Shown: in pieces, positions 1-40,776 of the stretch
Layout of the letters: the number at the start of each line of letters is the position of its first letter
How positions within the stretch are numbered: position 1 is the stretch's first letter
From: a virus
Direction: 5' to 3' (one strand)
UHGV virus genome: UHGV-0210060
DNA: 40,776 nt
Program-made: the position numbers and the translations under genes
The notes under the pieces: generated by a model
Told to the model about the DNA's origin: nothing
The model's database searches: none
What the model saw: the letters and a program-made list of their open reading frames with translations, nothing else

Positions 1-168
1 CTGTTTGACCATCAGGACGCCGTTAACTATTACGTGACGCTCACCTTTGCTGTCTCGGTTGTACTTGAGCACTGTTCCTCTTGCGCAGGAAAGCATCCTC
101 GCCACTTCGGTCTGATTGCCTCGTGTCTGGATAAGAAGCTCTGGTATCGTTTGAATTGTGGCGTTCAT
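1..168 (-). CDS. ninH: NinH-like protein, 3' end runs off window start (56 codons in window)
   Basis: ATG at 168..166 overlaps rusA stop (ATGA). Translation MNATIQTIPELLIQTRGNQTEVARMLSCARGTVLKYNRDSKGERHVIVNGVLMVKQ resembles lambda NinH (..GNQTEVARRLKCSRGTVRKY..IVNDVLMV). Frame continues at window end (GKRGRR then TGA at 40758..40756). Confidence 0.7.
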   Translation of the reverse strand, partial: MNATIQTIPELLIQTRGNQTEVARMLSCARGTVLKYNRDSKGERHVIVNGVLMVKQ

Positions 169-527
169 ACGTTCTCCAGTTCGGTGATTTTTATTCCAAG
201 CCGTCCGCCTGGTACTTTCACACCACGAATTACGCGAATATCATCGAATTGCTCGTCGTCTTCCGCAAATCCGGCGTGGATAAGGGAGTCGAGTAAACCT
301 TTCAGGATGTTATCGAGGTCGCGGCGGCGGGAGTCTGGAACGTCTGCGATGACTTTGATGCGGAGTCGTGATTTGGTGAAAATGTCTAACTTGAGTTGGC
401 GGATGATTTGCTGAACGTCTTTTCGGTATTTCTGACCTTTATCGCTGATGTAATATTGGCTTCCCCGTCTTCGCCAGTAGGTATTCACCGACGGCGGGTA
501 TGGAAGCACAAACCGATATTCATTCAT
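165..527 (-). CDS. rusA: RusA Holliday-junction resolvase
   Basis: 120 aa; LPYPPSVNTYWRRRG ... DSRRRDLDNILKGLLDSL motif pattern typical of RusA; nin-region position. Confidence 0.9.
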   Translation of the reverse strand: MNEYRFVLPYPPSVNTYWRRRGSQYYISDKGQKYRKDVQQIIRQLKLDIFTKSRLRIKVIADVPDSRRRDLDNILKGLLDSLIHAGFAEDDEQFDDIRVIRGVKVPGGRLGIKITELENV

Positions 528-814
528 GACTTAACCTTCCCCTCCTTCAGCAATACCGCCTGCGTCCTGATCACGCCTTCGAGGTGGTAAAGTCTGGCGT
601 CTTTGTTGTCGAGAATCCGGGTGCGTCGGTCGATCTCCGCGTGGCAGTCACTACAAGCCCATGCGCCGATCAGGTCGTCAGGCTTCATTCCCGTTCCGCA
701 AATTCCAGCCATCCGGTAATGTGCCAGAACTGTAGTTTCAGGATTGCCATTGCATACGCCGTAAATACGTACCTGGCATTCTCTGCCGCGCGCTTCTTTG
801 CGTAGGTTAGCCAT
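524..814 (-). CDS. ybcO: YbcO-like DUF1364 protein (putative nuclease)
   Basis: 96 aa, Cys/His-rich (RGRECQVRIYGVCNGNPETTVLAHYR ... CSDCHAEIDRR); lies immediately upstream of rusA as in DLP12-type nin regions. Confidence 0.7.
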   Translation of the reverse strand: MANLRKEARGRECQVRIYGVCNGNPETTVLAHYRMAGICGTGMKPDDLIGAWACSDCHAEIDRRTRILDNKDARLYHLEGVIRTQAVLLKEGKVKS

Positions 815-1019
815 TTACCTTCCCTCGCAATTGAAGAATTGACTGAAGGTCTTTTTTAATAAATATGCGAGTGCGAATTGAGCAGTAGTTTTCCTTCATT
901 CTGGCGTAGTAATAGTCCTTTCGTTGTTTAAGCTTGTTGGCATCCGCTGTCATCCAGTCTTTTACAGCAAACTTAATTAACCAGCGGTGGCAGAGATACC
1001 ATTTCAGGTAATCACTCAT
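807..1019 (-). CDS. hypothetical nin-region protein (70 aa)
   Basis: ORF between ninF and ybcO-like, co-oriented, start overlaps ninF stop; no motif recognised. Confidence 0.45.
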   Translation of the reverse strand: MSDYLKWYLCHRWLIKFAVKDWMTADANKLKQRKDYYYARMKENYCSIRTRIFIKKDLQSILQLRGKVNG

Positions 1020-1194
1020 CGTCTTCTTCCTCGTACATTGAGCTATTCGGATCGCTCATCAGTTCTGCGCAGCAATCGGAGCACACGTGAACTTCCAGCA
1101 CATGCAGCTTCTGACCGCAGTTAGCGCACGTTAAAGCTCGCTCGACGCTTTCTTTCTGGTATTGAAGGGATTGGGATGGGATAAGCATTAACAA
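1012..1194 (-). CDS. ninF: NinF
   Basis: 60 aa; [45 protein letters not shown] nearly matches lambda NinF. Confidence 0.85.
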   Translation of the reverse strand: MLMLIPSQSLQYQKESVERALTCANCGQKLHVLEVHVCSDCCAELMSDPNSSMYEEEDDE

Positions 1195-2155
1195 CCTCCA
1201 TACAAACTTTCACGAATGCCGTTGCTACTTCTGCATTGATTGCGTTTCCATATCCAATAATTCGCTGATCTTGATTGCGCTTTGCCATTCTTCCCAGTGT
1301 GGACTTGCCTCGTCCCAAGCTTTTGGCAATGCCATTAACCATCGGGAATGAGCCGGGTCTAACTGGACGATATTTTTCATCTCTACAGTAAAGCCAGTCT
1401 GCATCTCTCCAGAAGCCGTTAACCGGTAATGGGTACATAGCTTCACCGTCCCGGGAAGTTTCAAGCAGATTCTTGGGGTTCCGCTCTTGTCTTTTCCGCT
1501 GTAGCAATGCGTTGAACCTGTTGCATCGTTCGCTAAAGGAGTTTGCCATCCCGCTAGTCTCACGCATCCAGATAGGTTCTGAATTCCCCTGCGCGTTTCT
1601 GGCTGAAAGTTGATATTTGTCGTTGGAGTAGGCCACCCAATACAATCGCTGCCTGATGTGCGGAGAACCGAAGCCCGCAGCGCAAATATCGGTACCTGCA
1701 GAGGTGTAGTTCGCACCTTCCAAGTCAGTTTGTACAAGGTCGAGCCAAGCGAGGCCGTCTGCGCTTGCAACCTGTTCGCCAATAACGATGCCAGGATTGC
1801 ATTTTTCAATAAGCCAGAAGAATGCCGGCCATAAGTGCCGCTCGTCATCAACCCCTTTTCCTTTGCCTGCCGAGCTGAAAGGTTGGCATGGGCAACTTCC
1901 TGTCCAGATGCTCTTGTTGTCTGGCCATCCTGCTTTTCTAAGTGCATAGCTCCAAACTCCGATTCCTGCAAAAAAGTGGTGCTGGGTAAATCCTCGCAAA
2001 TCACCTGGTGTGACATCTTCAATACTCCTTTCATCTACATAACCGGGGGCAATTTCTCCAGCGTCAATTAAGTTACGCAGCCATTGCGCTGCATACGGAT
2101 CTATTTCGTTGTAATACGCAGTCATCGTCATTTCCTCGCACGATGTCTTAGCCAC
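1121..2155 (-). CDS. DNA (cytosine-5) methyltransferase, orphan phage type (frame A); overlaps a second long ORF in another frame
   Basis: 344 aa with motifs in canonical order: FFAGIGV (I), GSCPCQPFS (PCQ, IV), IGEQV (ENV-like, VI), [10 protein letters not shown] (QxRxR, VIII), [17 protein letters not shown] (X-like). Start may be an internal Met because of overlap with ninE. Confidence 0.7.
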
Positions 2156-2304
2156 CGGATATCCAACAGGTGAGCCGTGTAATTGAAGGTTTTTACGTCA
2201 GATTCTTTCGGGATTGGCTTGCGTTTATTTCTGGAGCGTTTCGTTGGAAGGTATTTGCAGTTTTCACAGATTATGTCGGTGATACTTCGTCGCTGTCGTC
2301 TCAT
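2128..2304 (-). CDS. ninE: NinE
   Basis: From internal Met: [56 protein letters not shown] matches lambda NinE; ATG overlaps ninB stop (ATGA). Confidence 0.85.
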
Positions 2305-2711
2305 TCGTACCTCCTGTCGGTAAATCTGACGCCCTGACCAATAGCCCATGCTGTCGTGTACTCAATCAGACTTGCCATACGCTTCACACTCATCTGCGCG
2401 CTACTTTCGCGAATGTTGACGTATTCGCCTTCAAGGCCGGGCAAAACATCAGCTTCCTGCTTTGTTGCCACTGCATGACCGCTAATCAACAAAACCTTCC
2501 ATTGTTCTGGTTTTAACCACTTATCGCACCATTGAACCTGACGTGCGATATCCGCCAGCATCGCGTGAAATTTTGCGTTCTGGTCAAGGTTGCGCTTGTA
2601 GTCAGTAATGCGGATGGTGACTGGCTTGTCTTTATCGAGTGGTGTTGCGAGGATGGCGTTGATTGCGGCTTGCTGTTGTTGCTTAGTTCGGAGGAATATT
2701 GTTTGCTTCAT
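2301..2711 (-). CDS. ninB: NinB (Orf-family recombination mediator)
   Basis: 136 aa; pattern ..RNLDQN.K..A.L.D..RQV.W...WL..E.WK resembles lambda NinB. Confidence 0.8.
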
Positions 2712-3051
2712 CGAAATTCTTCTCTTTAATTCCAGCGGCTCTGATAGCTTTCATTACTGCAATTACCGTTTTGTCACGCCCATCCTCATAACCCATCGCA
2801 TAAGCACCTTCTTCACCATCTTTCCAAAAGTCGTCATTCGATTCTGGCCAGTCGATATCCAGTTCAATAGCTGCTCGCGATGCCTGCCATAAAGTCCACC
2901 ACTCATTTAAGGAGTGACGAATATCCATGCTTGAAAATGCGAAGTACCTATCACCATTTCTTGCCTCGGTTATCATCTCGAATGGTAATCTCAATTTTTT
3001 GGCAACGTATTCCTCAAACTGCTTTCTTGATTCGTCCATATCACTCTCCAT
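2683..3051 (-). CDS. hypothetical protein, paralog B of 3497..3817
   Basis: 122 aa; shares MDESRKQFEE (from Met5), WQASRAAIE and IRAAGIK blocks with the ORF at 3497..3817. Confidence 0.6.
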   Translation of the reverse strand: MESDMDESRKQFEEYVAKKLRLPFEMITEARNGDRYFAFSSMDIRHSLNEWWTLWQASRAAIELDIDWPESNDDFWKDGEEGAYAMGYEDGRDKTVIAVMKAIRAAGIKEKNFDEANNIPPN

Positions 3052-3066
3052 CGATGATTTTTTGGG

Positions 3067-3249
3067 TTACCAATAATATTTGATAGTCGCCATAATTATC
3101 GGTAGCAACGCGCAGACAACTGAAAACCGTAAAACAAAACCTACTCCCAATATGCGATATCCATTATTCCAGAGAACAAAACTCATCATCAGAAGGAATC
3201 CATGAAAAATCGCGACAAGAAATAAACTACAAATAAATGCATTTACCAT
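3067..3249 (-). CDS. small hydrophobic protein (60 aa, predicted membrane)
   Basis: Almost entirely hydrophobic (FICSLFLVAIFHGFLLMMSFVLW ... VVCALLPIIMATI); AT-rich gene. Confidence 0.45.
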   Translation of the reverse strand: MVNAFICSLFLVAIFHGFLLMMSFVLWNNGYRILGVGFVLRFSVVCALLPIIMATIKYYW

Positions 3250-3308
3250 CGGTACTTACCACTCGCTCTTAATCCAATAAAAAAGGGTTTGCTTCACTGA
3301 ACACTCCT

Positions 3309-3500
3309 TTATTTTTTATGCCTGTAACCCCATTCTTCCAGCAACCTTGCGGCGTACCACCCAAGAAACAAAGGAAAGAACATTACAATGAGATATTCCC
3401 CGCCACGGTCAATGTTCGAAATTGACCAGATTACGATGTAACCAGTGCAGGACAGGAATATTACAAACCCCAAAAAGCTACTTCGTCGACTCATGCTCAC
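3309..3500 (-). CDS. small hydrophobic protein (63 aa, predicted membrane)
   Basis: Two hydrophobic segments (FLGFVIFLSCTGYIVIW; IVMFFPLFLGWYAARLL); start overlaps stop of 3497..3817 ORF (ATGA coupling). Confidence 0.5.
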   Translation of the reverse strand: MSMSRRSSFLGFVIFLSCTGYIVIWSISNIDRGGEYLIVMFFPLFLGWYAARLLEEWGYRHKK

Positions 3501-3817
3501 TCCTTCACTTTGATTCCAGCAGCGCGGATGTTTTCCTCATAAGCATCCATTGCATCACCGAAGCCATTGGAATAATCAACAGTAAACCCTTTGGCTAATG
3601 CTTCTCTGCTGTCGATAAACTTTGGCGCGGTTATTTCAATAGCTGCTCGCGATGCCTGCCACGTTTGCCAGTGGCCTTGAATATCGTCCATCACGTATTG
3701 ACCACCAATATCACCACTGCCAATTTCATGGTGATTTTCAGGGTAACGGATAAGGTCTGAAGATTCGCCTCCACGTCGCAACCAACTTTCTTCAAACTGC
3801 TTTCTTGATTCGTCCAT
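3497..3817 (-). CDS. hypothetical protein, paralog A of 2683..3051
   Basis: 106 aa starting MDESRKQFEE; shares WQ(T)WQASRAAIE and NIRAAGIK with paralog B. Confidence 0.6.
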   Translation of the reverse strand: MDESRKQFEESWLRRGGESSDLIRYPENHHEIGSGDIGGQYVMDDIQGHWQTWQASRAAIEITAPKFIDSREALAKGFTVDYSNGFGDAMDAYEENIRAAGIKVKE

Positions 3818-3834
3818 CGATACTTACCCTCAGT

Positions 3835-4041
3835 TCAACTCACAAAACGCCACGCCATTTTTGCTACAGCGACAGGCATAACACCGATAATCACCCAGAC
3901 AAATGCAGCGCCAAACAACGTATACCATGGATCTTTACCGTCATTCACAAGGCGAATGTAGCTATGCAGAACAATAAAAAACGTTAGAAGAATCCATCCA
4001 ACGCCAACGCATTTGAGTGCGACGAGCATAAACTCAACCAC
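3835..4041 (-). CDS. small hydrophobic protein (68 aa, predicted membrane)
   Basis: Hydrophobic segments GVGWILLTFFIVL and AAFVWVIIGVMPVAVA; first gene after the primase-helicase. Confidence 0.5.
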   Translation of the reverse strand: MVEFMLVALKCVGVGWILLTFFIVLHSYIRLVNDGKDPWYTLFGAAFVWVIIGVMPVAVAKMAWRFVS

Positions 4042-4117
4042 GATTTACTCTCCCCCAAATAAAAAGGCCTGCGATTACCAGCAGGCCTGTTACAAGCTCA
4101 GTGATGTAGATGGTCAT

Positions 4118-5998
4118 TTAATACTCCGTCACGTTTTCCTGTCGCCACGCCTCGTCATATTCCGATTTCGGCATATTGGCGATGTAGCTATATGGCGATC
4201 CTGATTCAAGTTGCAGGAACTGGTGCGATTGCTCGTCAAGGAACAACGGGACACCACCTTCCCAACCTTCGCCGTTTCGTTGCTTTTCAAGCATCAAAAC
4301 AGATGCCGGAGATGCCAGTAGCTGTTCGTCCTTCTCTGACATCTTTTCACCACTCTGAACTCTCTGTAACGCTCTCTCGCGAGCCTTGTTACGCCAGATG
4401 ATGAAAAGGTTGTCTGTCAGGTCTGTTATCGCTCCAGAGCCTTTTACGTCCATTTTCCCGGTTGGTTTTTCTTCGCTGTCACCTTTTCGCGAGTGAGTAA
4501 CGAGAATGACGTGGGAGTTTGTTTTGTTTTTGAAATCGCAAATCGAGTCAACAAACGCCTTCTGCCCGTTATAGTCATCGTCGCCTATGCCACATTTCAT
4601 CAGGCTGTCGATGATGAATAACTGGATGCCGTATCGGCGGCGAGCGTAGTCGAATATTTCGATCAGCCTGTCGGCTTTCGCCGTTCCGGTCAGGCCAAAC
4701 ACCCAAAGTCTTTCGTCATAAAATTTAAATGCAGAGTCAATTTCCAGCACTGGCGGCATCTTGCAGCACGTCGCCTGACGGGTAAGGCGCTTAAGGAGAA
4801 TACCAGGCTTCAGCTCAAGTGACGCGATGCACGTCTTCACACCCTGACGCATTGCCTCAAGTGCCATATGCCCGACAACCTCCGTTTTTCCGTGACCGTT
4901 CACACCATTGACCAGCGTCAACTCTGCCTCACGGAACTGGAATTTATCTGCCAGAGATTCCCACGGTGGATTAAACAGATACTGCTGCTTGCCGTAGAAA
5001 GCGTTGATAGTGTCCTGGTAAAACTCTCGCGCACTGTAGAGTTCTTCAGGATCGAAGTAGGATGCCGTGCCGATGTACTGCCAGATTTCATCCTCGGTAA
5101 CACCGTTCATCAGGCATTCGTTGATGTCTTTGTACGGCAGAGTAACAAGACGGCAACGATGTTCACCGAGTCGGCTTGCGATTTCCCTTGCGGCTTCACG
5201 ACCAACATCATCAACGTCCATCGAGATGAATATTTCCTCAAACCTGTCGAGGTTGTGGTACTCAAACTCAATCCACTGTTGCTTAGCGCCTTTCCCTCCA
5301 CCAAACGGCACGGATAACGCCGAGATGCCGTATTGCGCATAGCTCATACAATCAATTTCGCCTTCGCAAAGCACAACCGCCCTCACGCCAGCGTCCAGAG
5401 CCTGCCATCCGAACAGACAAGGTTCGCAATCACCTTCTGCCATAATGACTTTCTTCCCGTCCGGGCGCTCAGTGCTGATTCGCTTGACCTGCAACAACTC
5501 ACCATCGCGTTTGTACGGAAGCACCAGTGCATCAAGTTCTCGTTCTCCCTTCCACACCTTGCCGCTGACAACCTCGTAGCGCTTTACTACTTCTGGCGAT
5601 ATGCCACGCGATTGCAGGTACTCAAGATGGGATTCTGTTCTGGTAACGTAGCGGGCGATTTTCTTGCGATCAGGTCTGGAGAATTTCTTCTCACGTTTGG
5701 CATCGAAATGGTGATCGTCATCCTTGATACCGAGAAAGGCTTTCGCTTCCTGCATAGCCTGATGCAGGTTAATTCCACGACATGCCATCCACAAATCAAG
5801 CATGTCACCGCCGTCTCCCTCAGCGAAATCAGCCCATTTTTTCTTGCCGCTAAGGTTGACCTTAAGGCTGTTTCCCTTGTCACCGTTGACGTTACCGGCA
5901 ACCCACTCATGCCCCTCTTTCTTGCCGTTTGGCAACAGGTGCGGAGCCACCCTGTCAACCTGCGCCCAAAGCAGATCGCTAAGTTCATTTGGCCTCAT
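4118..5998 (-). CDS. bifunctional DNA primase/helicase (Toprim domain + RecA/DnaB-like ATPase)
   Basis: 626 aa; Toprim-like acidic cluster (CEGEIDCMSY ... ISMDVDDVGREAA); Walker A LVNGVNGHGKTE; Walker B LFIIDSLMK; sits where lambda has P. Confidence 0.8.
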   Translation of the reverse strand: MRPNELSDLLWAQVDRVAPHLLPNGKKEGHEWVAGNVNGDKGNSLKVNLSGKKKWADFAEGDGGDMLDLWMACRGINLHQAMQEAKAFLGIKDDDHHFDAKREKKFSRPDRKKIARYVTRTESHLEYLQSRGISPEVVKRYEVVSGKVWKGERELDALVLPYKRDGELLQVKRISTERPDGKKVIMAEGDCEPCLFGWQALDAGVRAVVLCEGEIDCMSYAQYGISALSVPFGGGKGAKQQWIEFEYHNLDRFEEIFISMDVDDVGREAAREIASRLGEHRCRLVTLPYKDINECLMNGVTEDEIWQYIGTASYFDPEELYSAREFYQDTINAFYGKQQYLFNPPWESLADKFQFREAELTLVNGVNGHGKTEVVGHMALEAMRQGVKTCIASLELKPGILLKRLTRQATCCKMPPVLEIDSAFKFYDERLWVFGLTGTAKADRLIEIFDYARRRYGIQLFIIDSLMKCGIGDDDYNGQKAFVDSICDFKNKTNSHVILVTHSRKGDSEEKPTGKMDVKGSGAITDLTDNLFIIWRNKARERALQRVQSGEKMSEKDEQLLASPASVLMLEKQRNGEGWEGGVPLFLDEQSHQFLQLESGSPYSYIANMPKSEYDEAWRQENVTEY

Positions 5999-6105
5999 GA
6001 TTCCCTCAGATTGAGATTTTTAAACCAGAAATCGACAAACGAAATACTTAACCAGCCGTGGTTATAACCAGCGACCAGTAGCGATTTGATTTTTGATTTC
6101 ATGGT

Positions 6106-6966
6106 TCACCTGTCGAAAAACACGTAGCCAGTTTTCGATACGGTGATTGCGGATGATGGTTTGGATTGTGGTTGAATGGTTTCTGGCTTCTCGTCGTTCC
6201 AGCGTTGACCGTTCAGGTAGCTCGATGGTAACAACCTGTCGAATCCGAACTGCTTACCATTCCTGCATGCGATGTCTTCTGCCAGCATCGTGGCAAACTC
6301 GCTTGCCGTACCCCTGGTAGTTTTACGCCATTCCCTGAACTGTGTTCTGAATGCCGAAGCTGCGTTTTTCTTCCCGGCCTTCCGCATGCCTGCACACCAG
6401 AATATTTCCTCGAATGCCTTGTCGGTTTCTTCGTGACGGTCAGGTGATTTTTCACACTCCGTCCGAACACTTTCGGACATAGTGTTTTTATTATTTCTTT
6501 TTTCTTTTGTAATAGTTTCTTTTGTGTGTCCCTGTTTTGGTGACAGCGCTGTCACCGTTTTGGTGACACTTTTTGTCACCAATGCAGTGACATTATCACC
6601 AGAGTAGTGACACCCTTCGATTTGCCATTCCTCGATGTTCTTGTTAGGCCCGATTTGCTGGCCTTCGCGAAGGATAACCTTCATCGCGATAAGCTCATTC
6701 TTGGCCTTGTTTACCTTCTGTCTTGGCAGCCTGGTAATTTGAGCTAACTGACTATCAGAGATGCGATCCATCTTTTTACCGTAGCCGTATGTTTTACGGC
6801 ATATGGCGTGGGCAACCTTGCTCTGATTTTTCGTTAAATCTGCGCCGATAAGCTCTTCATACAGGGCATTTGCAAGACGGGTATAACCATCTTCAACTTC
6901 TGCCACACGACGCTCCACAGGCCGTTGTGAAGGCCTTAAATGTGTTACGGTTGCAAGATTACTCAT
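6106..6966 (-). CDS. replication initiator, lambda O-like N-terminal domain with divergent C-terminus
   Basis: N-terminus aligns by eye to lambda O ([26 protein letters not shown]...[20 protein letters not shown] ... GPNKNI.EW ... [10 protein letters not shown]); iterons lie inside the gene. Confidence 0.85.
6480..6620. repeat. origin of replication: AT-rich tract plus iteron-like TGACA/TGTCA repeats inside the O-like gene
   Basis: 6481..6530 is A/T-rich; 6538..6616 has repeated GGTGACA / TGTCACC units (ttttggtgacagcgctgtcaccgttttggtgacactttttgtcacc...), the arrangement seen at lambda ori. Confidence 0.65.
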
Positions 6967-7096
6967 GACCTTTCTCCTTCTGCATCAGCTTCACTTTTTC
7001 CAACTCAGCCCGGAATCGACCAGGCTGCTTGAAGCTGGACAGGAAGCGATCACGTAGTATGTGTTTGTGAATTTTGTCCTGGTAAGGACTGAGTTG
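6959..7096 (-). CDS. small basic ORF (45 aa) between cII and the O-like gene
   Basis: Own translation: [48 protein letters not shown]; stop overlaps O-like ATG; below the ORF-track size cutoff. Confidence 0.4.
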
Positions 7097-7137
7097 TTTT
7101 GTCATAATGACTCCTGTGGATTGATCCAGTAATGACC

Positions 7138-7437
7138 TCAGAATTCCATCTGGATTTGTTCAGAACGCTCGGTCTTGCACACCGGGCGTTTTTTATTGAT
7201 GAGTCCATCAAGCGCATACTTAAAAGCCCTGCTAATCGGACTGATGTCTGATGCCATTCCGAAAGCACACAAGACCGAAGCAATAAACCGCCAGTCGGTA
7301 CGACTGATCTTCGATTCATGACAGCCAATCATCTTTGCCAGACCGCGCTGGGTAAGCGTTGACAGGTTGATGAGTAAATCTGTTTCTGCGCGATCAACAT
7401 CGCGCTGTGATAGTTTGCTGTAACTTGTTTGTTCCAT
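7138..7437 (-). CDS. cII: CII-like transcriptional activator
   Basis: 99 aa; C-terminus [19 protein letters not shown] matches lambda CII ([19 protein letters not shown]); position between cro and replication genes. Confidence 0.8.
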
Positions 7438-7522
7438 TTCTTATGATTTCCAATAGTGAATAGTTAGCTGAAAGGTATGCGTGGAAACGCATGTGGCCTT
7501 GGTTGGTCAGATATTCTGGGAT

Positions 7523-7568
7523 TCGCTTTTCAGCGACGTAGGACGAATGTCCGTTGTTACAAAGAGCG
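7523..7568 (-). promoter_or_regulatory. nutR-like site (boxA + boxB hairpin with GAAA loop)
   Basis: Minus-strand reading: CGCTCTTTGTAACAAC (boxA-like), GGACattcGTCC hairpin, then TCGCT-GAAA-AGCGA; lies between cro stop and cII. Confidence 0.55.
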
Positions 7569-7575
7569 TGGTTAC

Positions 7576-10015: not shown

Positions 10016-10017
10016 TT

Positions 10018-32989: not shown

Positions 32990-35188
32990 TTACTGCTGTG
33001 ATTGTTGCTGAGTTGATTTTTTCAGGATGCTGCTGATGTCCATGCGCTGCGCATGGCCCTGTGCCTGACTTTTCAGGACAAGCTCTGCATCAGCACGGGC
33101 ATTGTCTCCTTGCTGTTGCTGGAACTGCCCGAGCAGTTTCAGAGCCTCACGGATATCAGATTTTTGCTGACTATCGGCAGATGCGAGTATTTTCACAACA
33201 TTTGCCGCTGCAACCTGAGCATCAGTCTGTGCCTGGAATGCTTTAACCTGAATGGCTGCCTGTTCGTTCTGCGCTTTCTGCAATTCAGCCTGACCTGCAA
33301 GAAGCTGACCTTGCGCTGCAACCATAGCCGGATCTGGCTGACTGGCCTGTTGTTGTTTCGCCTGTTCAACCATCTGCTGTTCTTCAGGCGTTCTCGGCTT
33401 GATAACGCCAGACAGAAGCAACTGATTGCGGTTGTATTCTTTCAGGTCGTCCATCCCTTCGCCGTCCATATTGTCGAGAATCATCGACGATACAAGGTCG
33501 TGCTTCGGCGTTCCTGGTGGGATAAGTGCCAGCATGGAAAGTAACGACTTAACCGTTGCGTCACGGCGAGTAGCGAACGACTGACCGACATCGACAGTCA
33601 CTTCATAGTTACCCTGCGAAAGGTCGTTAAGTGCGATAACCTGCCCTGTCTGACGGTCAACCACTTCACCAGTCATCAGCGCCACGTCATCGCTGCCGTC
33701 CTCATTAACGATGCGCATTGGCGTATCGCTGCCATAGATTTCACGCGCCATAGAAAGCCACACGACGCCAGCACGGCGCATGGATTTAGCCATGTTGTCC
33801 ATGTAGATATAGGACTGCGTGTCCATCCTGTTAAAGATGCTATCAACGGTATCGGTGGCGACGTTGCTCGGCATGTTCTCAAGCTGCGACGCACCTGTAA
33901 TTTGCTGAATAGCTGTTCCGGTGTACTGCAATAGCCCGGCAAGAGCAGGAGGCATTTGTGTCGGAGGTGTATAACTGCTGACCTGAGCCTGCGCAGTAAT
34001 ATCTCCGTTTTTGTTTTTCAGACTTACCATCGGCAGAAACGCCGGGCGCTTTTTGTTGCGCTCCGCCCAATGAGTGGCAAGAGGACCAGGAATCATGTCA
34101 ACATCAACTACAGGAATGCCATCTCCGCCAGCCTGAGTGGCGTTATCTGCAATCATGGAAACCATCAGGTTCTCAAGACGCTGTGCATCCATCGCTTTTG
34201 CTGCGTGGCCTTCGATTCGCTCCTGATTATCAACAAATGAGCGACGCCCATATACCGGGATGAGAGGAATATGTTCACCCGGAATACGCTTCGGTTCTTC
34301 CAGCCATTCAGCGCCAGACAGAAGACCGCAATAAACGCGGCGCTTCTTCACCGTTCGCTCGCCAATCAGTTCGAATGCACCATCGGTCAGTTCGTCGACA
34401 ATACCTTTGATTTGCTCTTCATCATAGATTGCCGTTTCTCCGCTAACAGGGTTGCGCCACGCCGTGAGCTTCACCTTCTCTATGCGAACTTCGTAGTAAC
34501 GTCCAACATAGATGGCGTCAGGCGTTGACCAGTCATACTGAGTACCAGTGTCATCACGAGAAAGACTTGCCGCGATGGAATCAGGGTATTCAGCCTCGAA
34601 CGCTTTAGGCGTCATGGAGAACATTTCCATAGCCCACATAGCATCAGAGCGGTCATATTGCTTGCTGTCCTGATCGAAGAAAACGCATGTCGCTGGGTCG
34701 TAAACAGGAAGAAGGCTGATGCGTCGCTGCTCGTTACTTGGGTCCATTTCATCTTCGTAATCGGCACACATGCGGAAACAACCGAATCCGCCCGTTACAG
34801 CATCATCAAATGCGTTATCACACGCTTCGCCACCGGATGTTTCCTGATAGTCAGCGCGGAATTTGCCGTTCATCTTTTCAGCTAACGCTTCCGATGCCTT
34901 GTCATCCTTCGGCCTGAATTTAACGCTGATGCGATTCTGTCGATACTCGCCAATGATGCGATCACATTCACGGGCAATCTTATTCAATTCAAAACGCGGA
35001 TAATGCTCGAACCTGCCTTCATCAAATGAGTAACCAGCGTTTGTGCTGCCTTCCCACTGTGCTCCGGACACCCGGACGAAACGTTGAGCCTCAATAATCT
35101 GCTCACGCATATCCTGCGTTGCTGACCAGGCATTATCAAAGTTGCACAGCACCTTGCGATGCCAGTCAGTAATCTTTTTTTCTGCCAT
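32990..35188 (-). CDS. portal protein (P22 gp1 type with C-terminal helical barrel)
   Basis: 732 aa; Gln-rich C-terminus (EEQQMVEQAKQQQASQPDPAMVAAQGQLLAGQAELQKAQN...) parallels P22 gp1; follows the large terminase. Confidence 0.85.
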   Translation of the reverse strand: MAEKKITDWHRKVLCNFDNAWSATQDMREQIIEAQRFVRVSGAQWEGSTNAGYSFDEGRFEHYPRFELNKIARECDRIIGEYRQNRISVKFRPKDDKASEALAEKMNGKFRADYQETSGGEACDNAFDDAVTGGFGCFRMCADYEDEMDPSNEQRRISLLPVYDPATCVFFDQDSKQYDRSDAMWAMEMFSMTPKAFEAEYPDSIAASLSRDDTGTQYDWSTPDAIYVGRYYEVRIEKVKLTAWRNPVSGETAIYDEEQIKGIVDELTDGAFELIGERTVKKRRVYCGLLSGAEWLEEPKRIPGEHIPLIPVYGRRSFVDNQERIEGHAAKAMDAQRLENLMVSMIADNATQAGGDGIPVVDVDMIPGPLATHWAERNKKRPAFLPMVSLKNKNGDITAQAQVSSYTPPTQMPPALAGLLQYTGTAIQQITGASQLENMPSNVATDTVDSIFNRMDTQSYIYMDNMAKSMRRAGVVWLSMAREIYGSDTPMRIVNEDGSDDVALMTGEVVDRQTGQVIALNDLSQGNYEVTVDVGQSFATRRDATVKSLLSMLALIPPGTPKHDLVSSMILDNMDGEGMDDLKEYNRNQLLLSGVIKPRTPEEQQMVEQAKQQQASQPDPAMVAAQGQLLAGQAELQKAQNEQAAIQVKAFQAQTDAQVAAANVVKILASADSQQKSDIREALKLLGQFQQQQGDNARADAELVLKSQAQGHAQRMDISSILKKSTQQQSQQ

Positions 35189-35189
35189 A

Positions 35190-36605
35190 TCAACCTACAC
35201 CACAAGGAATTGAGTAACTGGAATAGTCGGGTTGCGCAGCCGACTCTGGGCAATGCATACACATCATCAGCGCATCAGCCAGGTTAGGAGATGGAATACC
35301 GAGCTTCTGCTTCATTTCGACCTTAGTCATAAGCTCCAGCTTCCCGTTGTTATTGAATTTGCGCTGAATCTGCGTCAGTTCTGCAAACAGCTTCTCCAGC
35401 ATCTTCTCGCCTATCGCCTCTTTGTCGAAACTCAGCATGTAGTCGGGGTCTGCATACTCACCGTGGACAACCGCCCGATATGTCAGATACAGCCTGTCAG
35501 CCAGCGCATAATAGAATTGCGCTCGCTTATTGCGGAACACATCGCCAATAGTGCGAACGTTGTCACCCTGTACGACTTCATCAGCCCATGCTCCGGCCTG
35601 GTAAGGCGCATCTTCATCGAATGGCGATTCGCTACCCTTGAACATCGTGGCGGTGATTTTCTTGCCGGAGAACGCTTCCGTTGTCTGTCTGCGTAGCCCG
35701 GCACCAACACCATCACCATCCCACAGGTAATGGTCAGCGCCGTCTTCAATCGCCAGCGAAGTAGCCCAGTCAGCACCCTCGTTGATGTCCATCAGTAGAC
35801 CTTCGGCAATGCGCTTAACAACCGAACCGTGACGCGATGCGTAACCTTTAGCATCTGGCCCTGTATCTGATGGGTCATGCGCAGAGACAACCGCACCTTT
35901 CGCTTTCCATCCGAGTTTCTTGTGCGCATCGGTAGCAGCTTCAAGCCATTCACGTTTGATGATTGCCATATCACTTGCGCTTACCGGCTCACCAAGCCAG
36001 ATGTGACGATACAGCGTCGGATTTCTGCGTTTGCACTCTTCCATCTCCAGACGGAGGACTTCAGGAAAGTGCGGGTTGTCGGTGTAGTTCACCGTCAGCA
36101 GACAAATATCATCAGGAGGGTTTACGACGAATCGCTGATAGGTATCGTCGAGGATGTTTTTCGGGTTGAAACTTACCCATATTTCAGAGAACGGCTTACG
36201 GATGGTCGGTATCAGAATATCCCATGATTCCTTCGTTACCGCTTCCGCTTCCTCCACCCAGCAGATATCAATGCCTTCGAGAGATTTAATCTTCGTCGGG
36301 TTGTTTTTGATGCCATAGAACATGAATTCAGCATTCGTTCCGAGATGACGAATCATGGAACGCTGAATTTCAAACTCAGCCGAATACCCTTCCCGCTCGA
36401 TGGTGTCTTCAAGCAACCGGATTACCGAATCGCTGATACTGTTTTGCAGTTCACGAGCACAGAGAATACGCACAGGCTGCCGACGAGCCGCTTCAACAAG
36501 CAGCCTCGCAATTGCCCATGATTTACCGCTACCTCGACCGCCTTTGGCGACTTTGTAGCGATGCGCCTCAATGAACGGTTCAAAGATAGGATTAATCGAG
36601 GTCAT
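35190..36605 (-). CDS. terminase large subunit
   Basis: 471 aa; Walker A KGGRGSGKS near the N-terminus; size as Sf6 TerL. Confidence 0.85.
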   Translation of the reverse strand: MTSINPIFEPFIEAHRYKVAKGGRGSGKSWAIARLLVEAARRQPVRILCARELQNSISDSVIRLLEDTIEREGYSAEFEIQRSMIRHLGTNAEFMFYGIKNNPTKIKSLEGIDICWVEEAEAVTKESWDILIPTIRKPFSEIWVSFNPKNILDDTYQRFVVNPPDDICLLTVNYTDNPHFPEVLRLEMEECKRRNPTLYRHIWLGEPVSASDMAIIKREWLEAATDAHKKLGWKAKGAVVSAHDPSDTGPDAKGYASRHGSVVKRIAEGLLMDINEGADWATSLAIEDGADHYLWDGDGVGAGLRRQTTEAFSGKKITATMFKGSESPFDEDAPYQAGAWADEVVQGDNVRTIGDVFRNKRAQFYYALADRLYLTYRAVVHGEYADPDYMLSFDKEAIGEKMLEKLFAELTQIQRKFNNNGKLELMTKVEMKQKLGIPSPNLADALMMCMHCPESAAQPDYSSYSIPCGVG

Positions 36606-37042
36606 TTTCCGAATAGAGTGCTCATCGGTGATGTTTCAATCTGGATTGCGCCGCCGTCTTTGCCTGTTAGCTCGTGATCAACCTTGTCGCGCCATTTATC
36701 CTTCTGTCGATTCTTAAGCCAGAAGATGGCAGCGGTTGTATCAGGCGGGTAATACTTCTCAAGCGGAGTTTCGACAATTCTGTTTTCAATAACACGAATA
36801 TCGATGTCTGGAGCCACGAAGCCCATAGCGCGTTGATAAAGACGATCACTAACTTCTGCATCAGCGACGGCCTTACCCTTTTTTATGGACTCCGAAAACT
36901 TAGGATAATCAAGCTTCCACTTGTTAATAGTTGACTCACTGACTTCAAAGAAATCAGCAAGTTCTGCATCGGTGTAGCCCAGCAAGCACAGTTTGCGTGC
37001 CTGTTCGGCATACGCCTCTTGATACTTTGTTGGGCGCGCCAT
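36602..37042 (-). CDS. terminase small subunit (Sf6 type)
   Basis: 146 aa; C-terminus LTGKDGGAIQIETSPMSTLFGK matches the Sf6 small-terminase C-terminus as recalled; overlaps terL start. Confidence 0.75.
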   Translation of the reverse strand: MARPTKYQEAYAEQARKLCLLGYTDAELADFFEVSESTINKWKLDYPKFSESIKKGKAVADAEVSDRLYQRAMGFVAPDIDIRVIENRIVETPLEKYYPPDTTAAIFWLKNRQKDKWRDKVDHELTGKDGGAIQIETSPMSTLFGK

Positions 37043-37044
37043 GT

Positions 37045-37287
37045 TTATGCTCCGGTAGTGAACAGGTCTAACGCTTCCTTCGATTTACGTACCGCTTCGA
37101 TAGTGCGGGTCGTGATATCTGAATTAGCGCCGCCTGACTGGAAGTGAATTTTGAATAGCTCAAGCTTCAGCTCGTCAGTGCCAATGAATTGAAATGCTTC
37201 TTCTGCGGCTGCGTTCTGGTTCATGACCAGTTTGTAAATCTCTAACTGGAATTTCTGTTCTTCAGTCATGGGAATAATCTCTGCCAT
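37045..37287 (-). CDS. hypothetical protein (80 aa) upstream of terS
   Basis: Co-oriented ORF ending 3 nt before terS; no motif recognised. Confidence 0.5.
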   Translation of the reverse strand: MAEIIPMTEEQKFQLEIYKLVMNQNAAAEEAFQFIGTDELKLELFKIHFQSGGANSDITTRTIEAVRKSKEALDLFTTGA

Positions 37288-37586
37288 TGTTGGCTCCGTT
37301 TATCCGTTAAAAGGGATATCAGTTAAGTTATCCCGTGTAGGGTATAAGCCATTGTCGAGACCATTCATTGAATGGCCTCTGCAATAACCGATGTCTTTCC
37401 ATCAGTCCGCCACCACAAAGAATCTTTTTTGCCATAAGGCAGGAGGTTCATCTTTCAGTGGCTGCCAGTGTTATTTCCCCACTTACTGGCTTGGGTTGTT
37501 TCGCTGTACTGCCGTAACTGGTGACCTAGAATAAATTCCGGTTTCATTATCAAGCCCACCCGTAGATGGGCTTTGTGATGGCATCT

Positions 37587-38111
37587 TCAATTAATCAGCA
37601 ATTCGGGCTGCGTCACCTGCAAGATGTATTCATGCTCGACAGCCAGGACACGCTTCTCTTTCTTCCGTTCGTTCATTAACCGACTGCCGATCGTACCTTT
37701 CAGCTTTGAGCGTGTTTCTTTGATGGCGTAGCGGTGCTGCATTTCTTCGCCAATTGCCATGCGGCGGCTCAGTTGCTCTGCCATCCAGTTGAATGCCGCG
37801 ATATAGCTCTCCTTGATTGCCGCAGCAGCTTTCCCGGTGAACCCCATCACAACCATGATCCAGCCATCTTTCGTCAGGCTGTACATCGGGCGAACCTTGC
37901 CCTGCTCATCGATATAATCAGCCGACGCAAAATTGCGTTGGCTAAACTCACACGAGCAATCAGCCTTAACCTGCTCGATTTTCCTGAGAACATCACCGTG
38001 TCGCTTGCCGAAGTACTTGGCAATTTTTCTGGATGTGGTAACGACCTCTCCGTTTTTGGCTTGCACCATTTCTCGGAAGTCGAAGGCTGGAATAACTGAA
38101 TGATTATTCAT
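37587..38111 (-). CDS. rha: Rha-family phage regulatory protein
   Basis: From internal Met (MNNHSV...): VVTTSRKIAKYFGKRHGDVLRKIE is typical of the Rha N-terminal domain; between lysis and packaging genes as in P22. Confidence 0.7.
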   Translation of the reverse strand: MNNHSVIPAFDFREMVQAKNGEVVTTSRKIAKYFGKRHGDVLRKIEQVKADCSCEFSQRNFASADYIDEQGKVRPMYSLTKDGWIMVVMGFTGKAAAAIKESYIAAFNWMAEQLSRRMAIGEEMQHRYAIKETRSKLKGTIGSRLMNERKKEKRVLAVEHEYILQVTQPELLIN

Positions 38112-38255
38112 GGCGTCTTTACCTTTTAGAAAGTGAGCCTGTCTCACAGAAAAGCCGCCCGAGAGAGGTCGCCACCTATAACGGCATTTCTCAGGCTCGC
38201 TTACTGAAAGGCTCTCGTTTATATGCGCGTGAGATACGCTGTGAAATTCAGATAT

Positions 38256-38279
38256 AAAAAAGCCCCGCGAATGCGAGGC
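38256..38279 (-). terminator. intrinsic terminator between Rz and rha inside the late operon
   Basis: Minus strand GCCTCGC-att-CGCGGGGC (one mismatch) followed by TTTTTT. Confidence 0.55.
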
Positions 38280-38454
38280 TAAATCCTGGTATTTGTAATG
38301 ATCTGGCTCTTATCTCAACGCAACCCCTTACTGCGCGCCAGATGCTCAATATCAAGCATCAGCAATGAGATGTTTAATCTGGATTCACTCCAGAAGCGAT
38401 CACCACCCTGTCTACAGAGCCAGATGTGAAGGATGATGAGTAAAATTATCGCTA

Positions 38455-38922
38455 TCATCGAAGGCATTGCGTCCTGATGTATTCCTGAAGCGTTCTCAGT
38501 GCTGTTTGGTCGCGGATAATTCCGTCCCGGATACCGAGAACGTTTCGTCCAGCAACTGGAGAGAGTTCGACGGTGGCATCATTGCCCATGCCGGAGGCGC
38601 TGGAGGTTTCGTCTGAGGATGGCACAGGGCATTTTCCTTTGACGAGCACCCTGCCACCATTATCAAGCTTCCGCCGAAGAGCATCATTTTCAGCTTTCGC
38701 ATCAGCTAACTCCTTCGTGTATTTAGCATCAAGTGCATCAGCATCACGCTGGCGCTGCTGCATGTCAGTAATGGTGGCGGTCGCCTGCTTCAGCTCACTG
38801 ACTTTTTTATCGCGCTGTTCTTTGTAGGCGATGGCGTTATCACGGTAATGATTAACAGCCCATGACAGGCAGACGATGACGCAGATAACCAGAGCGGAGA
38901 TAATCGCGGTGACTCTGCTCAT
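38455..38922 (-). CDS. Rz: Rz i-spanin
   Basis: [34 protein letters not shown]...[20 protein letters not shown] is lambda Rz-like. Confidence 0.9.
38496..38702 (-). CDS. Rz1: Rz1 o-spanin lipoprotein embedded in Rz in another frame
   Basis: [22 protein letters not shown]... with lipobox-like VAGC and proline-rich PPAPPAW, as in lambda Rz1. Confidence 0.8.
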
Positions 38923-39395
38923 GCCTCAATCTCTCTGACCGTTCCGCCTGCTTCTTTGAATTTTGCAATCAGGCGGTCAGCCTTATGCTCGAACTGACCA
39001 TAACCAGCCCCCGGAAGTGAAGCCCAGATATTACTGCAACGGTCGATTGCCTGACGAATATCACCGTGGTCAATCATCGGTAAAGCGCCACGCTCCTTAA
39101 TCTGCTGCAGTGCAACTGCGTCCTGGCTTTTCGGAGAGAAATCTTTCAAGCCAAGCTGCTTACGATAGGCATCCCACCAACGGGAAAGAAGCTGGTAACG
39201 TCCTGCGGCTGTTGATTTGAGTTTTGGGTTTAGCGTGACAAGTTTGCGAGGGTGATCGGAGTAATCAGTGAATAGCTCTCCGCCTACAATGACGTCATAA
39301 CCATGATTTCTGGTTTTCTGACGTCCGTTATCAGTTCCCTCCGACCACGCCAGCATATCGAGGAACGCCTTACGTTGATTATTGATTTCCACCAT
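38919..39395 (-). CDS. R: endolysin R (lytic transglycosylase)
   Basis: 158 aa; [51 protein letters not shown]... is near-identical to lambda R. Confidence 0.95.
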
Positions 39396-39702
39396 CTTCT
39401 ACTCCGGCTTTTTTAGCAGCGAAGCGTTTGATAAGCGAACCAATCGAGTCAGTACCGATGTAGCCGATGAACACGCTCGTTATATAAGCGAGATTGCTAC
39501 TTAGTCCGGCGAAGTCGAGAAGGTCACGAATGAACCAGGCGATAATGGCGCACATCGTTGCGTCGATTACTGTTTTTGTAAACGCACCGCCATTATATCT
39601 GCCGCGAAGGTACGCCATTGCAAACGCAAGGATTGCCCCGATGCCTTGTTCCTTTGCCGCGAGAATGGCGGCTAACAGGTCATGTTTTTCTGGCATCTTC
39701 AT
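39379..39702 (-). CDS. S: holin S (dual-start)
   Basis: 107 aa beginning [35 protein letters not shown]..., near-identical to lambda S. Confidence 0.95.
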
Positions 39703-40002
39703 GTCTTACCCCCAATAAGGGGATTTGCTCTATTTAATTAGGAATAAGGTCGATTACTGATAGAACAAATCCAGGCTACTGTGTTTAGTAATCAGATTTG
39801 TTCGTGACCGATATGCACGGGCAAAACGGCAGGAGGTTGTTAGCGCAACCTCACGCCACCCGCTTTCACGAAGCCAGCCATTGCGCTGGTTTTCTTTTAT
39901 GCAAAGCACACCGCACCGTAGCCACAGCGGATAAGGTGATTATTTTGGTCTGTCTGGTATTTGGTTTGATGTGCTTTCAGAAAGGCCGTGCTTAAAACGC
40001 AA

Positions 40003-40030
40003 AAAGCCCCGAGCTATTAACTCAGGGCTT
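40003..40030 (-). terminator. tR'-like intrinsic terminator ~55 nt downstream of pR'
   Basis: Minus strand GCCCTGAG-ttaatag-CTCGGGGC + TTTTT. Confidence 0.7.
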
Positions 40031-40064
40031 TATTTAACGAGTGCATTTATCCATCGTTGGGTCA

Positions 40065-40093
40065 AATTTACCCAAATTTATTCAAAAAGTCAA
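40065..40093 (-). promoter_or_regulatory. late promoter pR' with qut region
   Basis: Minus strand TTGACT-17-TAAATT followed by ACGATGGATAAATGCACTCG, closely similar to the lambda pR' initial transcribed region. Confidence 0.75.
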
Positions 40094-40135
40094 TATTATG
40101 CCGTTAATATGTTGCCATCCGTGGCAATCATGCTG

Positions 40136-40759
40136 CTAACGTGTGACAGCATTCAAAATGTTGTCTGCGATTGACTCTTCTTTGTGGCATTGCACCACCA
40201 GAGCGTCATACAGCGGCTTAACAGTGCGTGACCAGGTGGGTTGAGTAAGGTTTGGGATTAGCATCGTTACAGCGCGATATGCGGCGCTTGCTGGCATCCT
40301 TGAATAACCGACGCCTTTGCATCTTCCGCACTCTTTCTCGACAACTCTCCCCCACTGCTCTGTTTTTGCTATATCAACCGCACGGCCTGTACCGTGGCAA
40401 TCTCTGCACCTTGCTCCCGGCGTCGCGGCACTACGGCAATAATCCGCATAAGCGAATGTTGCGAGCACTTGCAGTACCTTTGCCTTAGTATTTCCTTCAA
40501 GCTTTGCAACGCCACGGTATTTCCCCGATACCTTGTGTGCAAATTGCATCAGATAGTTGATAGCCTTTTGTTTGTCGTTCTGGCTGAGTTCATGCTTACC
40601 GCAGAATGCAGCCATTCCGAATCCGGCTTGTGATTGCGCCATCCCCATAGCAGCCATCACATCAGTACCGGAAAGAGAGTCAGAAGCCGTAGCCCGTGGT
40701 GAGTCGCTCATCATCGGGCTTTTTGGCGAATGAAATTTAGCTACGCTTTCGAGTCTCAT
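40136..40759 (-). CDS. Q: late antiterminator Q (lambda type)
   Basis: 207 aa; MRLESVAKFHSPKSPMMSDSPRATASDSLSGTDVMAAMGMAQSQAGFGMAAFCGKHELSQNDKQKAINYLMQFAHK... essentially lambda Q. Confidence 0.95.
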   Translation of the reverse strand: MRLESVAKFHSPKSPMMSDSPRATASDSLSGTDVMAAMGMAQSQAGFGMAAFCGKHELSQNDKQKAINYLMQFAHKVSGKYRGVAKLEGNTKAKVLQVLATFAYADYCRSAATPGARCRDCHGTGRAVDIAKTEQWGRVVEKECGRCKGVGYSRMPASAAYRAVTMLIPNLTQPTWSRTVKPLYDALVVQCHKEESIADNILNAVTR

Positions 40760-40776
40760 CGTCTTCCCCTCTTGCC

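Follow-up and report, generated by a model that had tools for sequence, protein, structure and literature searches.

The virus genome UHGV-0210060, a stretch of 40,776 bases that we examined as a whole and refer to as the window, carries genes of phage lambda and P22 types together, which raises the question of what kind of phage it represents. It had been predicted from the sequence to be a new module-level mosaic, with lambda-type control, integration and lysis genes around a P22/Sf6-type virion. Our analysis shows that the window almost certainly represents a temperate podovirus of Escherichia coli that is P22-like (Lederbergvirus, CUS-3 virion subtype), its genome being complete and circularised and its mosaic origin the usual one for lambdoid phages. 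The mosaic character was borne out, but several of the assignments (virion, recombination, immunity, NinH and Rz1) were not.

1 to 40776, no strand assigned: whole phage genome, circularly closed, opened at an arbitrary point inside ninH

The gene ninH spans the window ends, and joining 40756-40776 to 1-168 yields an intact 62-amino-acid open reading frame (ORF), 100% identical at the amino acid level to HK620 NinH. This makes the window a complete genome that is either circular or circularly permuted. Prophage copies at five public loci are colinear over this end-to-end junction. The approximately 60 genes follow an order typical of P22-like lambdoid phages. On the minus strand, late and virion genes extend from Q (40136-40759) to the tailspike (17478-20183), and early-right genes from cro (7576-7809) via the nin region to position 1; the plus strand carries the early-left genes, which begin with N and end with int (15830-16900). 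The gene map contains both the lambdoid regulatory and early order int-xis-(ea)-recombination-N-cI-cro-cII-O-(helicase)-nin-Q-lysis and the Lederbergvirus cluster TerS-TerL-portal-scaffold-coat-gp4-gp10-gp26-gp14-gp7-gp20-gp16-ant moron-tailspike, with homologues as in P22, Sf6, HK620 and CUS-3. Downstream of Q, where Sf6 and 720R6 carry tRNA genes, a search found none. Gene content, identities, prophage junctions and breakpoints were read directly, while the functions given to the modules are those predicted from homology.

We aligned the window by blastn with seven reference phages, whose proteins were also compared, and obtained the following aligned fractions of the window:

Lambda (NC_001416): 12%
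P22 (AF217253): 21%
Sf6 (AF547987): 31%
HK620: 33%
CUS-3 (CP000711): 38%
phiv205-1 (MN340231): 55%
vB_EcoP-720R6 (ON470605): 57%, the best named phage

Chance is not an issue for the main module matches because these extend over several kilobases at 95 to 100% identity. The large blocks in common with lambda are 95 to 97% identical and comprise xis-int-attP, Q with the pR' region, and S, R and the 5' part of Rz, to which ninE, ninF and the regulatory gene order can be added; the leftover lambda DNA matches are linkers of 32 to 137 bp (ren/ninB or tR2, the cI 3' end, the OL-to-rexB region and the tL region). The window has no lambda head or tail genes and differs from lambda in the immunity region, N, the C-terminus of O and the helicase system, the recombination genes, NinH, the Rz C-terminus and Rz1. 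P22 resembles it in the order of the virion genes, the head-binding domain of the tailspike, an immI built with sar RNA, Ant (85%), Abc2 (91%) and Q (96%). Its procapsid proteins, however, are just 29 to 41% identical, it differs in integrase and att site, in immC, in the replication module (gp18/gp12) and in erf, and its sieA and gtrABC are missing from the window. Sf6 is alike in the Rad52-like protein (100%), SSB (97%), needle gp26 (98%), TerL (100%), the C-terminal tail of TerS and gene 19, and differs in coat, scaffold and portal (0 to 55% amino acid identity), integrase and att site, Q, immunity region and oac conversion.

The three closest relatives are mosaics of another composition. 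CUS-3 matches in TerS, TerL, portal, scaffold, coat, gp4 and gp10 (97 to 100% amino acid identity), in the order of these genes, in S and R, and in a tailspike ending in an S74 chaperone domain, but it has its own argW-type integrase, phage-21-type Q, DnaB-type helicase replication, Erf recombinase, immunity region, endosialidase tailspike, P22-length needle, gp14, gp16 and gp20. 720R6 has CUS-3-type head genes, lambda-type xis and int (99%), an identical O, a 99% identical primase-helicase, and similar gp14 and gp7, and its record extends into the bio operon beside the lambda-type int; its phage-21-type Q with tRNA genes, Erf-type recombination module and immunity region are its own, and it differs in the tailspike body, needle (80%), ant moron, gp16/gp20 and Rz C-terminus. 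The phage phiv205-1 is alike in the lambda-type Q, S-R-Rz (95 to 99%), Rha, head genes, gp16 (96%) and the ant/arc/mnt immI genes (90 to 97%), whereas its CPS-53-type integrase, DnaB-type helicase replication, P22-type immunity region, Erf recombinase and a different tailspike, broken by insertion sequence (IS) elements, set it apart. Each module of the window has a counterpart at least 96% identical in known E. coli phages or prophages.

Such combinations have been described before. P22-like phages belong to the lambdoid phages as a mosaic branch, epsilon34 has a lambda-like Q, and a gene that ends the early-right operon is reported to be 98% identical to its lambda counterpart (PMC2629481). 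Lambda-like S and R are annotated for both HK620 and Sf6, and a lambda-like Q for HK620 as well, and P22-like prophages with lambda-type int/xis by bio or ybhC are already in GenBank (720R6 and E. coli K56-43-un). The lambda/P22 patchwork is the norm for the group, and the window fits as a normal member into a mosaic family that is well described, giving one more example of modular evolution in lambdoid and P22-like phages.

The claim that the mosaic is new, in the sense that no known genome is colinear with it, stands against named phages and complete genomes but fails for draft assemblies. In megablast searches, none of 50,697 INPHARED phage records or 5,426 complete RefSeq E. coli genomes covered at least 80% of either half of the window, and a gp20 probe gave best matches of 97% in IMG/VR and 87% among GTDB representatives, with an identical copy in neither. 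Exact-protein look-ups in a public assembly collection, however, returned 125 blocks for the tailspike, 133 for gp20 and 204 for cI. The draft GCA_020541985.1 (ABDIHC010000006.1, a 339-kb contig) carries 38,738 of the 40,776 bases between ybhC and ybhB-bio with two mismatches: 38699-40776 is 100% identical, 1-16988 is 99.994% and 16970-36660 is 99.995% identical (one mismatch in each of the latter two stretches), and the remaining gap of 2,038 bp has equal length in record and window. In GCA_053828665.1, two overlapping loci on one contig give 31,142 contiguous bases with one mismatch, and identity is 100.000% over 19.1 kb of GCA_958319495.1, 13.2 kb of GCA_012787715.1 and 20.6 kb of an ENA metagenome scaffold. 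Combined, the public loci cover all 40,776 bases at 99.9% identity or more. The genome in the window has largely been sequenced already, several times, as a prophage in draft assemblies.

These copies place the prophage at a defined chromosomal site, which the integration module of the window matches.

15634 to 16900, plus strand: lambda-type xis (15634-15852) and int (15830-16900), by protein and DNA match
16900 to 17179, minus strand: lambda-type attP, with the P' arm towards int and the P arm towards the tailspike

As predicted, this module is close to lambda: Xis and Int are 97% and 99% identical in amino acids, 15543-17179 (xis, int and the whole attP) aligns with lambda 29169-27534 at 96.6% identity over 1,639 bp by blastn, and the core GCTTTTTTATACTAA, the same as that of lambda attP and attB, is exact (15/15) at 16974-16988 on the minus strand. 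Since the core is identical to that of lambda, insertion would take place between ybhC and ybhB/bioA, the lambda attB. Homology to the window stops at the attP core in the isolates, with prophage junctions at 16970/16988, and the flanks are those of lambda attB: ybhC on the int side and ybhB, an IS605 tnpB, bioABFCD and uvrB on the tailspike side. A lambda-type Int and Xis would act on the lambda-type attP and insert the genome at this site. E. coli Nissle 1917, ATCC 25922 and clone D have this chromosomal flank at 100% identity, and the window provides a clean full reference for a prophage lineage at lambda attB with at least one carrier in a Nissle/ATCC 25922-like background.

The P' arm of attP is 100% identical to that of lambda, and so, at approximately 100%, is the P-arm stretch in which the lambda record annotates 'int 1' and 'int 2', two Int sites of the arm type. 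On the P side, about 60 bp by the core (approximately 17003-17060) have diverged to about 60 to 70% identity; going by the lambda attP map, we take this stretch to carry the Xis, Fis and IHF-H2 sites, including the X2/F region. An IHF-like WATCAANNNNTTR motif is kept within it. Judging from these differences, the diverged P arm may be a natural variant of excision control. Next to attR, an IS200/IS605-family tnpB (OrfB_IS605 / Cas12f-like TNB domain; 13886-15016 of the GCA_053828665.1 locus) lies between ybhB and bioA, and the ybhB-tnpB-bioA arrangement is 100% identical in Nissle 1917 and ATCC 25922.

The module junctions had been proposed as candidate recombination points, and several observations agree with this. 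Comparison with 104 related loci gave 89 breakpoint clusters, 36% of which are no more than 30 bp away from a gene boundary; randomly placed positions gave 13.7 ± 3.6%, and never more than 25.8% in 2,000 trials. Recurrent intragenic breakpoints fall at known domain junctions, namely in the tailspike at about residue 113 (19844), in the needle gp26 (28233-28420), at the TerS C-terminus (36690) and in Rz, and others recur in gp16/gp20 (24691, 25348 and 25948). The short linkers of the window coincide with annotated Sf6 boundary sequences, all six of bsq2-bsq7 being matched. GCA_017063175.1 carries a sibling prophage at the same att site, with the tailspike and the early, lysis and packaging regions of the window: identity is 100% over 1-7335, 99.6% or more over approximately 32.5-40.8 kb and 99.7% over 16970-20688. 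Between about 20.7 and 32.5 kb, however, it has a different block with another ant moron and other ejection proteins, needle (233 residues) and coat (419 residues). Approximately 12 kb of the late region have thus been swapped recently, and comparing the two genomes offers a datable natural example of such an exchange. By the route usual for lambdoid phages, co-resident phages and prophages will have recombined at short conserved linkers and at gene or domain boundaries, and functional combinations were then selected. One published study (PMC3945230) attributes to Rad52-like recombinases a relaxed form of homologous recombination that joins temperate phages with defective prophages, and the Rad52-like protein of the window may have made these particular junctions.

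Some points weigh against reading the window as a complete temperate phage of this family. Its viability (inducibility and infectivity) is judged from sequence only, and excision control identical to that of lambda is only assumed because the 60 or so bp of the P arm by the core differ. Colinearity was pieced together from partial stretches, so that end-to-end comparison covers no single record; the comparison to GCA_020541985.1 left out 36661-38698, a stretch that is 100% identical in other assemblies. Retrieval of 94 of the comparison loci by way of the gp20 region skews the breakpoint statistic towards the virion half.

A defective or cryptic prophage, as opposed to a functional phage, is unlikely. 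Many E. coli lambdoid prophages are defective, function is predicted here from sequence, and the P arm of attP has its diverged stretch, but all the P22-essential gene classes are full-length and 95 to 100% identical to homologues in plaque-forming phages (CUS-3, HK620 and Sf6), and neither an IS element nor a truncation was seen. The circular window and a 38-kb phage-only metagenome scaffold are consistent with excised or packaged DNA, and the near-zero divergence among carriers argues for recent spread. We consider it very improbable that the window is a new, previously unsequenced hybrid of lambda-like and P22-like phages. That no phage record or complete genome reaches 80% coverage of either half, that the best named phages align over only 57% (720R6) and 55% (phiv205-1), and that the best IMG/VR gp20 is 97% identical would fit such a hybrid; prophages with 0 to 2 mismatches over 13 to 39 kb in several NCBI drafts and in ENA metagenome scaffolds, the wide indexing of the exact tailspike, gp20 and cI proteins, and the same int/attB arrangement in 720R6 and K56-43-un speak against it. 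An assembly chimera, in which lambda-like and P22-like metagenomic contigs were misjoined at common sequences, can practically be dismissed. The near-identical linkers among mosaic phages can mislead assemblers, and the window has no terminal repeat, but the same colinear order is found in independent isolates on contigs of 270 to 475 kb with chromosomal flanks on both sides, and in an independent metagenome scaffold, and the circular junction restores an intact ninH.

The virion genes of this complete temperate P22-like phage are arranged as follows:

30062 to 37042, minus strand: CUS-3-type packaging and procapsid block, with gp4, orf62, coat (30734-31987), scaffold (32006-32899), portal (32990-35188), TerL (35190-36605) and TerS (36602-37042)
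27319 to 30052, minus strand: gp14 (27319-27789), needle gp26 (27786-28634) and gp10 (28634-30052), by amino acid identities
23422 to 27332, minus strand: ejection proteins gp16 (23422-25254), gp20 (25251-26660) and gp7 (26673-27332), internally mosaic

Packaging, head, ejection and needle genes had been described as P22/Sf6-like. This is correct for their order and for the Sf6-type needle, but the procapsid is of the CUS-3 type. The whole packaging and procapsid block is 97 to 100% identical in amino acids to CUS-3, 720R6 and phiv205-1, a single 9.1-kb high-scoring segment pair with CUS-3 having 95.9% identity. Coat, scaffold, portal, gp4 and TerS are 97%, 100%, 99%, 100% and 99% identical to their CUS-3 counterparts, whereas coat and portal are only 29% and 35% identical to those of P22, and against Sf6 the coat has no match, the scaffold 33% and the portal 55%. 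The expected Sf6-like C-terminus of the small terminase is present, the last 20 or so residues of TerS (GKDGGAIQIETSPMSTLFGK) being identical to Sf6 gp1 in a protein that is 32% identical overall. The needle gp26 (282 residues, with a knob) is of the Sf6 type and 98% identical to it, gp10 is 98 to 99% identical to that of all E. coli and Shigella references, and gp14 is 98% identical to that of 720R6 and about 22% to the other references. Among the ejection proteins, gp16 is 96% identical to that of phiv205-1, gp7 93% to that of 720R6, and gp20 at most 68% to any of the seven references. Ejection proteins of P22-like phages are highly mosaic (PMC10883804). Pfam matches on record for identical genes are P22_portal, P22_CoatProtein, P22_Tail-4, Phage_stabilise, Phage_tail_NK, DUF2824, P22_gp7, Inj_translocase and Phage_P22_gp16. 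The CUS-3-type terminase, portal, scaffold and coat would build and fill the head, and the virion would bear a knobbed Sf6-type needle, mosaic ejection proteins and a mixed tailspike.

The late control and lysis genes lie upstream of the terminase genes:

40003 to 40759, minus strand: Q (40136-40759), a pR'-like promoter (40093-40065) and a terminator hairpin (40031-40003), by protein and DNA match and by scan
38455 to 39702, minus strand: lysis cassette with Rz (38455-38922), embedded Rz1 (38496-38702), R endolysin (38919-39395) and S holin (39379-39702)
37045 to 38467, minus strand: DUF2560 hkbM-like gene (37045-37287), Rha-family gene (37587-38111 or 37587-38147) and orf50 (38315-38467), 99 to 100% identical in amino acids to phiv205-1

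Q, S and R had been called close to lambda, and their amino acid identities are 100%, 99% and 97%. The DNA is 96.3% identical over 40036-40769 (Q and 100 bp downstream) and 95.4% over 38675-39873 (S, R and the 5' part of Rz). For Rz and Rz1, the same claim applies only to about residues 1 to 83 of Rz, and lambda DNA homology ends inside this gene at 38675; Rz is 62% identical to lambda overall and 95% to phiv205-1, its C-terminal half is not lambda-like, and Rz1 is 45% identical to that of lambda. The lambda-family S and R would lyse the cell together with the hybrid Rz/Rz1. Scanning downstream of Q revealed a pR'-like promoter (TTGACT-17-TAAATT), followed approximately 35 to 60 nucleotides on by a strong hairpin terminator with a 13-bp stem and a T-run, at which lambda homology stops. 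The late leader of lambda is about 194 nucleotides long, and that of the window phage should, from the position of this hairpin, be much shorter. A Q identical to that of lambda would act at this promoter for late transcription. The Pfam families Phage_pRha and DUF2560 are on record for the called Rha-family and hkbM-like genes. The two ends given for the Rha-family gene bear on the look-up, in which a 186-residue form with a GTG start matched no long isolate contigs, a start-codon artefact, and the 174-residue ATG form does match them.

The replication and recombination genes are in the two early operons:

4118 to 7105, minus strand: replication module with a primase-helicase (4118-5998), an O-type initiator (6106-6966) and a DUF2740 gene (6959-7105)
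9743 to 15543, plus strand: early-left operon, from N to an Sf6 gene-19-like ORF
10018 to 10380, plus strand: HK620 hkaQ-like gene
10661 to 10831, plus strand: probable cIII-like gene
11086 to 11793, plus strand: Rad52-like annealing protein (Rad52_Rad22), 100% identical to Sf6 gp28
11794 to 12309, plus strand: SSB, 97% identical to Sf6 gp27
12318 to 12866, plus strand: DEDDh 3'-5' exonuclease (Rv2179c-like)
12883 to 13179, plus strand: Abc2 anti-RecBCD protein, followed by a DUF2737 gene
13897 to 14895, plus strand: Ead/Ea22, one of the ea genes
15244 to 15543, plus strand: Sf6 gene-19-like ORF

Pfam matches confirmed the Toprim-helicase and the Rad52-like, SSB and DEDDh genes. The original prediction regarded the recombination module as of neither the lambda nor the P22/Sf6 type, which is wrong with respect to Sf6, given the matches to gp28 and gp27; the DEDDh exonuclease is the sole member of the module with a match in none of the seven references. 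The block from the Rad52-like gene to Abc2 has its match in a prophage of E. coli EC3 at 99.7% identity, and 140 complete genomes contain at least 80% of it. This operon would supply the annealing protein, SSB, the exonuclease and Abc2 for recombination. The primase-helicase (626 residues, Toprim and DnaB-like by Pfam) is 99% identical to that of 720R6, and the initiator (Phage_rep_O by Pfam) is 100% identical to that of 720R6 and, in its N-terminus, 49% to lambda O. Just two 19-nucleotide copies of an origin iteron were detected within O at the settings used (6527-6568). The O-type initiator would work with the fused Toprim/DnaB-like primase-helicase to replicate the genome.

Downstream of the replication genes lies a mosaic nin region:

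1 to 4117, minus strand: ninH (across the window ends), rusA (165-527), a ybcO-like gene (524-814), ninF (1012-1194), a C5 cytosine methyltransferase gene (1121-2125), ninE (2128-2304), ninB (2301-2711), small ORFs and a tR2-type linker (4048-4117)

The linker corresponds to Sf6 bsq6 and to the ren/ninB intergenic region of lambda. Similarity to lambda, expected for NinE, NinF and NinH, was found for the first two (NinE 90% in amino acids, with 95.8% DNA identity over 2131-2297; NinF 80%, with 93.5% over 1017-1154) but not for NinH, which is 53 to 56% identical to lambda and 100% to HK620 and CUS-3. The C5 cytosine DNA methyltransferase gene is inserted between ninE and ninF, and the segment comprising all three is covered to at least 80% in just 11 of the 5,426 complete E. 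coli genomes. No partner restriction gene was found nearby, and the enzyme is therefore presumably an orphan, anti-restriction methylase. PADLOC, run on ten accessory proteins, gave only generic methyltransferase matches and a weak DEDDh match.

Two further parts of the genome are variable cargo:

17478 to 20183, minus strand: tailspike of 901 residues, with a P22/Sf6-type head-binding N-terminus, a distinct centre and a C-terminal S74 intramolecular-chaperone domain
22073 to 23404, both strands: 'ant moron' cargo, with a P63C-domain protein (22073-23059, minus) and a small ORF (23219-23404, plus)

The tailspike has Pfam matches to Head_binding (residues 1-113, E = 2.8e-66) and Peptidase_S74 (770-832). 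Residues 1 to 175 match Sf6 gp14 (PDB 7sg7), the N-terminus of the P22 tailspike is matched as well, and the C-terminal chaperone also matches solved structures, whereas residues 176 to 730, approximately, have no such sequence match. The central domain is 98.9% identical to that of YDC107_2, 79.7% to that of phage YZ1 (38.8 kb) and about 42% to that of Vectrevirus, so that the receptor-binding module is common to the window phage and only a few other (lytic) podophages. The tailspike would set the host range, and it may serve in typing or as a depolymerase once the receptor is known. The S74 domain and the K5-type host background prompted us to consider a K5-lyase or an endosialidase, for which we found no support, a lyase or sialidase catalytic domain being undetected by sequence. 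The P63C-domain protein (328 residues, Pfam P63C, phrog_2384 of unknown function) lies between gene 16 and mnt, in the slot of sieA in P22, and has no PADLOC match. The ant moron is 98% identical to that of a prophage of E. coli AR_0118. This locus is hypervariable, with ten types in sixteen genomes (PMC2629481). We see a small but real chance that these two cargo parts, the tailspike central domain and the P63C-domain gene, are functionally new: the former could be a depolymerase for an uncharacterised capsule or O-antigen of B2-type extraintestinal E. coli, and the latter could encode an undescribed prophage-expressed exclusion function.

Lysogeny would be controlled from two regions:

7138 to 9125, both strands: immunity region with cII (7138-7437, minus), cro (7576-7809, minus), cI (7923-8627, plus) and orf126 (8745-9125, plus)
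20362 to 22057, both strands: P22-type immI with ant (20362-21258, minus), sar (21259-21326, plus), orf73 (21321-21542, minus), arc (21539-21691, minus) and mnt (21806-22057, plus)

The lambda-type control that had been proposed is confined to Q and the promoter region downstream of it, whereas cI and cro are of the BP-4795 type and N is not lambda-like either. The immunity DNA is 96% identical to that of the Stx1 phages BP-4795 and AU5Stx1, in which the cro-cI and downstream segment matches over 67% of 7440-9700; these phages are Stx-converting, and their virion and late regions are unrelated to those of the window. Neither cI nor cro has a protein match in any of the seven references, and cI carries a Peptidase_S24 match. 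As anticipated, the C-terminus of cII is lambda-like, with 92.5% DNA identity to lambda in the linker of the cII 3' end and O 5' end (7098-7203), but the whole protein is only 38 to 40% identical. N (9743-10015) belongs to the N_peptide family and is 39% identical to P22 gp24, its C-terminal fifth being 96% identical to HK620 N. The BP-4795-type cI/cro/cII switch would take the lysis-lysogeny decision.

The likeness of immI to that of P22 was confirmed by the sar antisense RNA over the ant start (88 bits in Rfam against a gathering score of 43), by Ant (85% identical to P22 and 97% to phiv205-1) and by Arc/Mnt-family genes; Arc and Mnt are 33 to 35% identical to P22, and Arc-family (ribbon-helix-helix) Pfam matches are on record for the called genes. 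This region (mnt, arc, ant and sar RNA) would add antirepressor control.

Both control regions contain an additional small gene. Directly 3' of cI, orf126 (126 residues, phrog_16322 of unknown function, without a match in Pfam or PADLOC) sits where lambda has rexAB, a place typically taken by exclusion genes that the prophage expresses. Between arc and ant, where P22 has no gene, orf73 is an extra ORF of 73 residues (phrog_11805 of unknown function); in the prophage of E. coli AR_0118, the corresponding gene bears the annotation ClpX C4-type zinc-finger protein. A related prophage in GCA_016955295.1 is inserted at another site, flanked by genes for a LysR-family regulator and a GntP-family permease, and its locus apparently has two tandem immunity regions at 5900-10705: cII-cro-cI-N with a cI of 228 residues, followed by DUF2740-cII-cro-cI with a cI of 234 residues that is identical to that of the window. 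This double immunity may reflect a recombinant or a tandem double lysogen.

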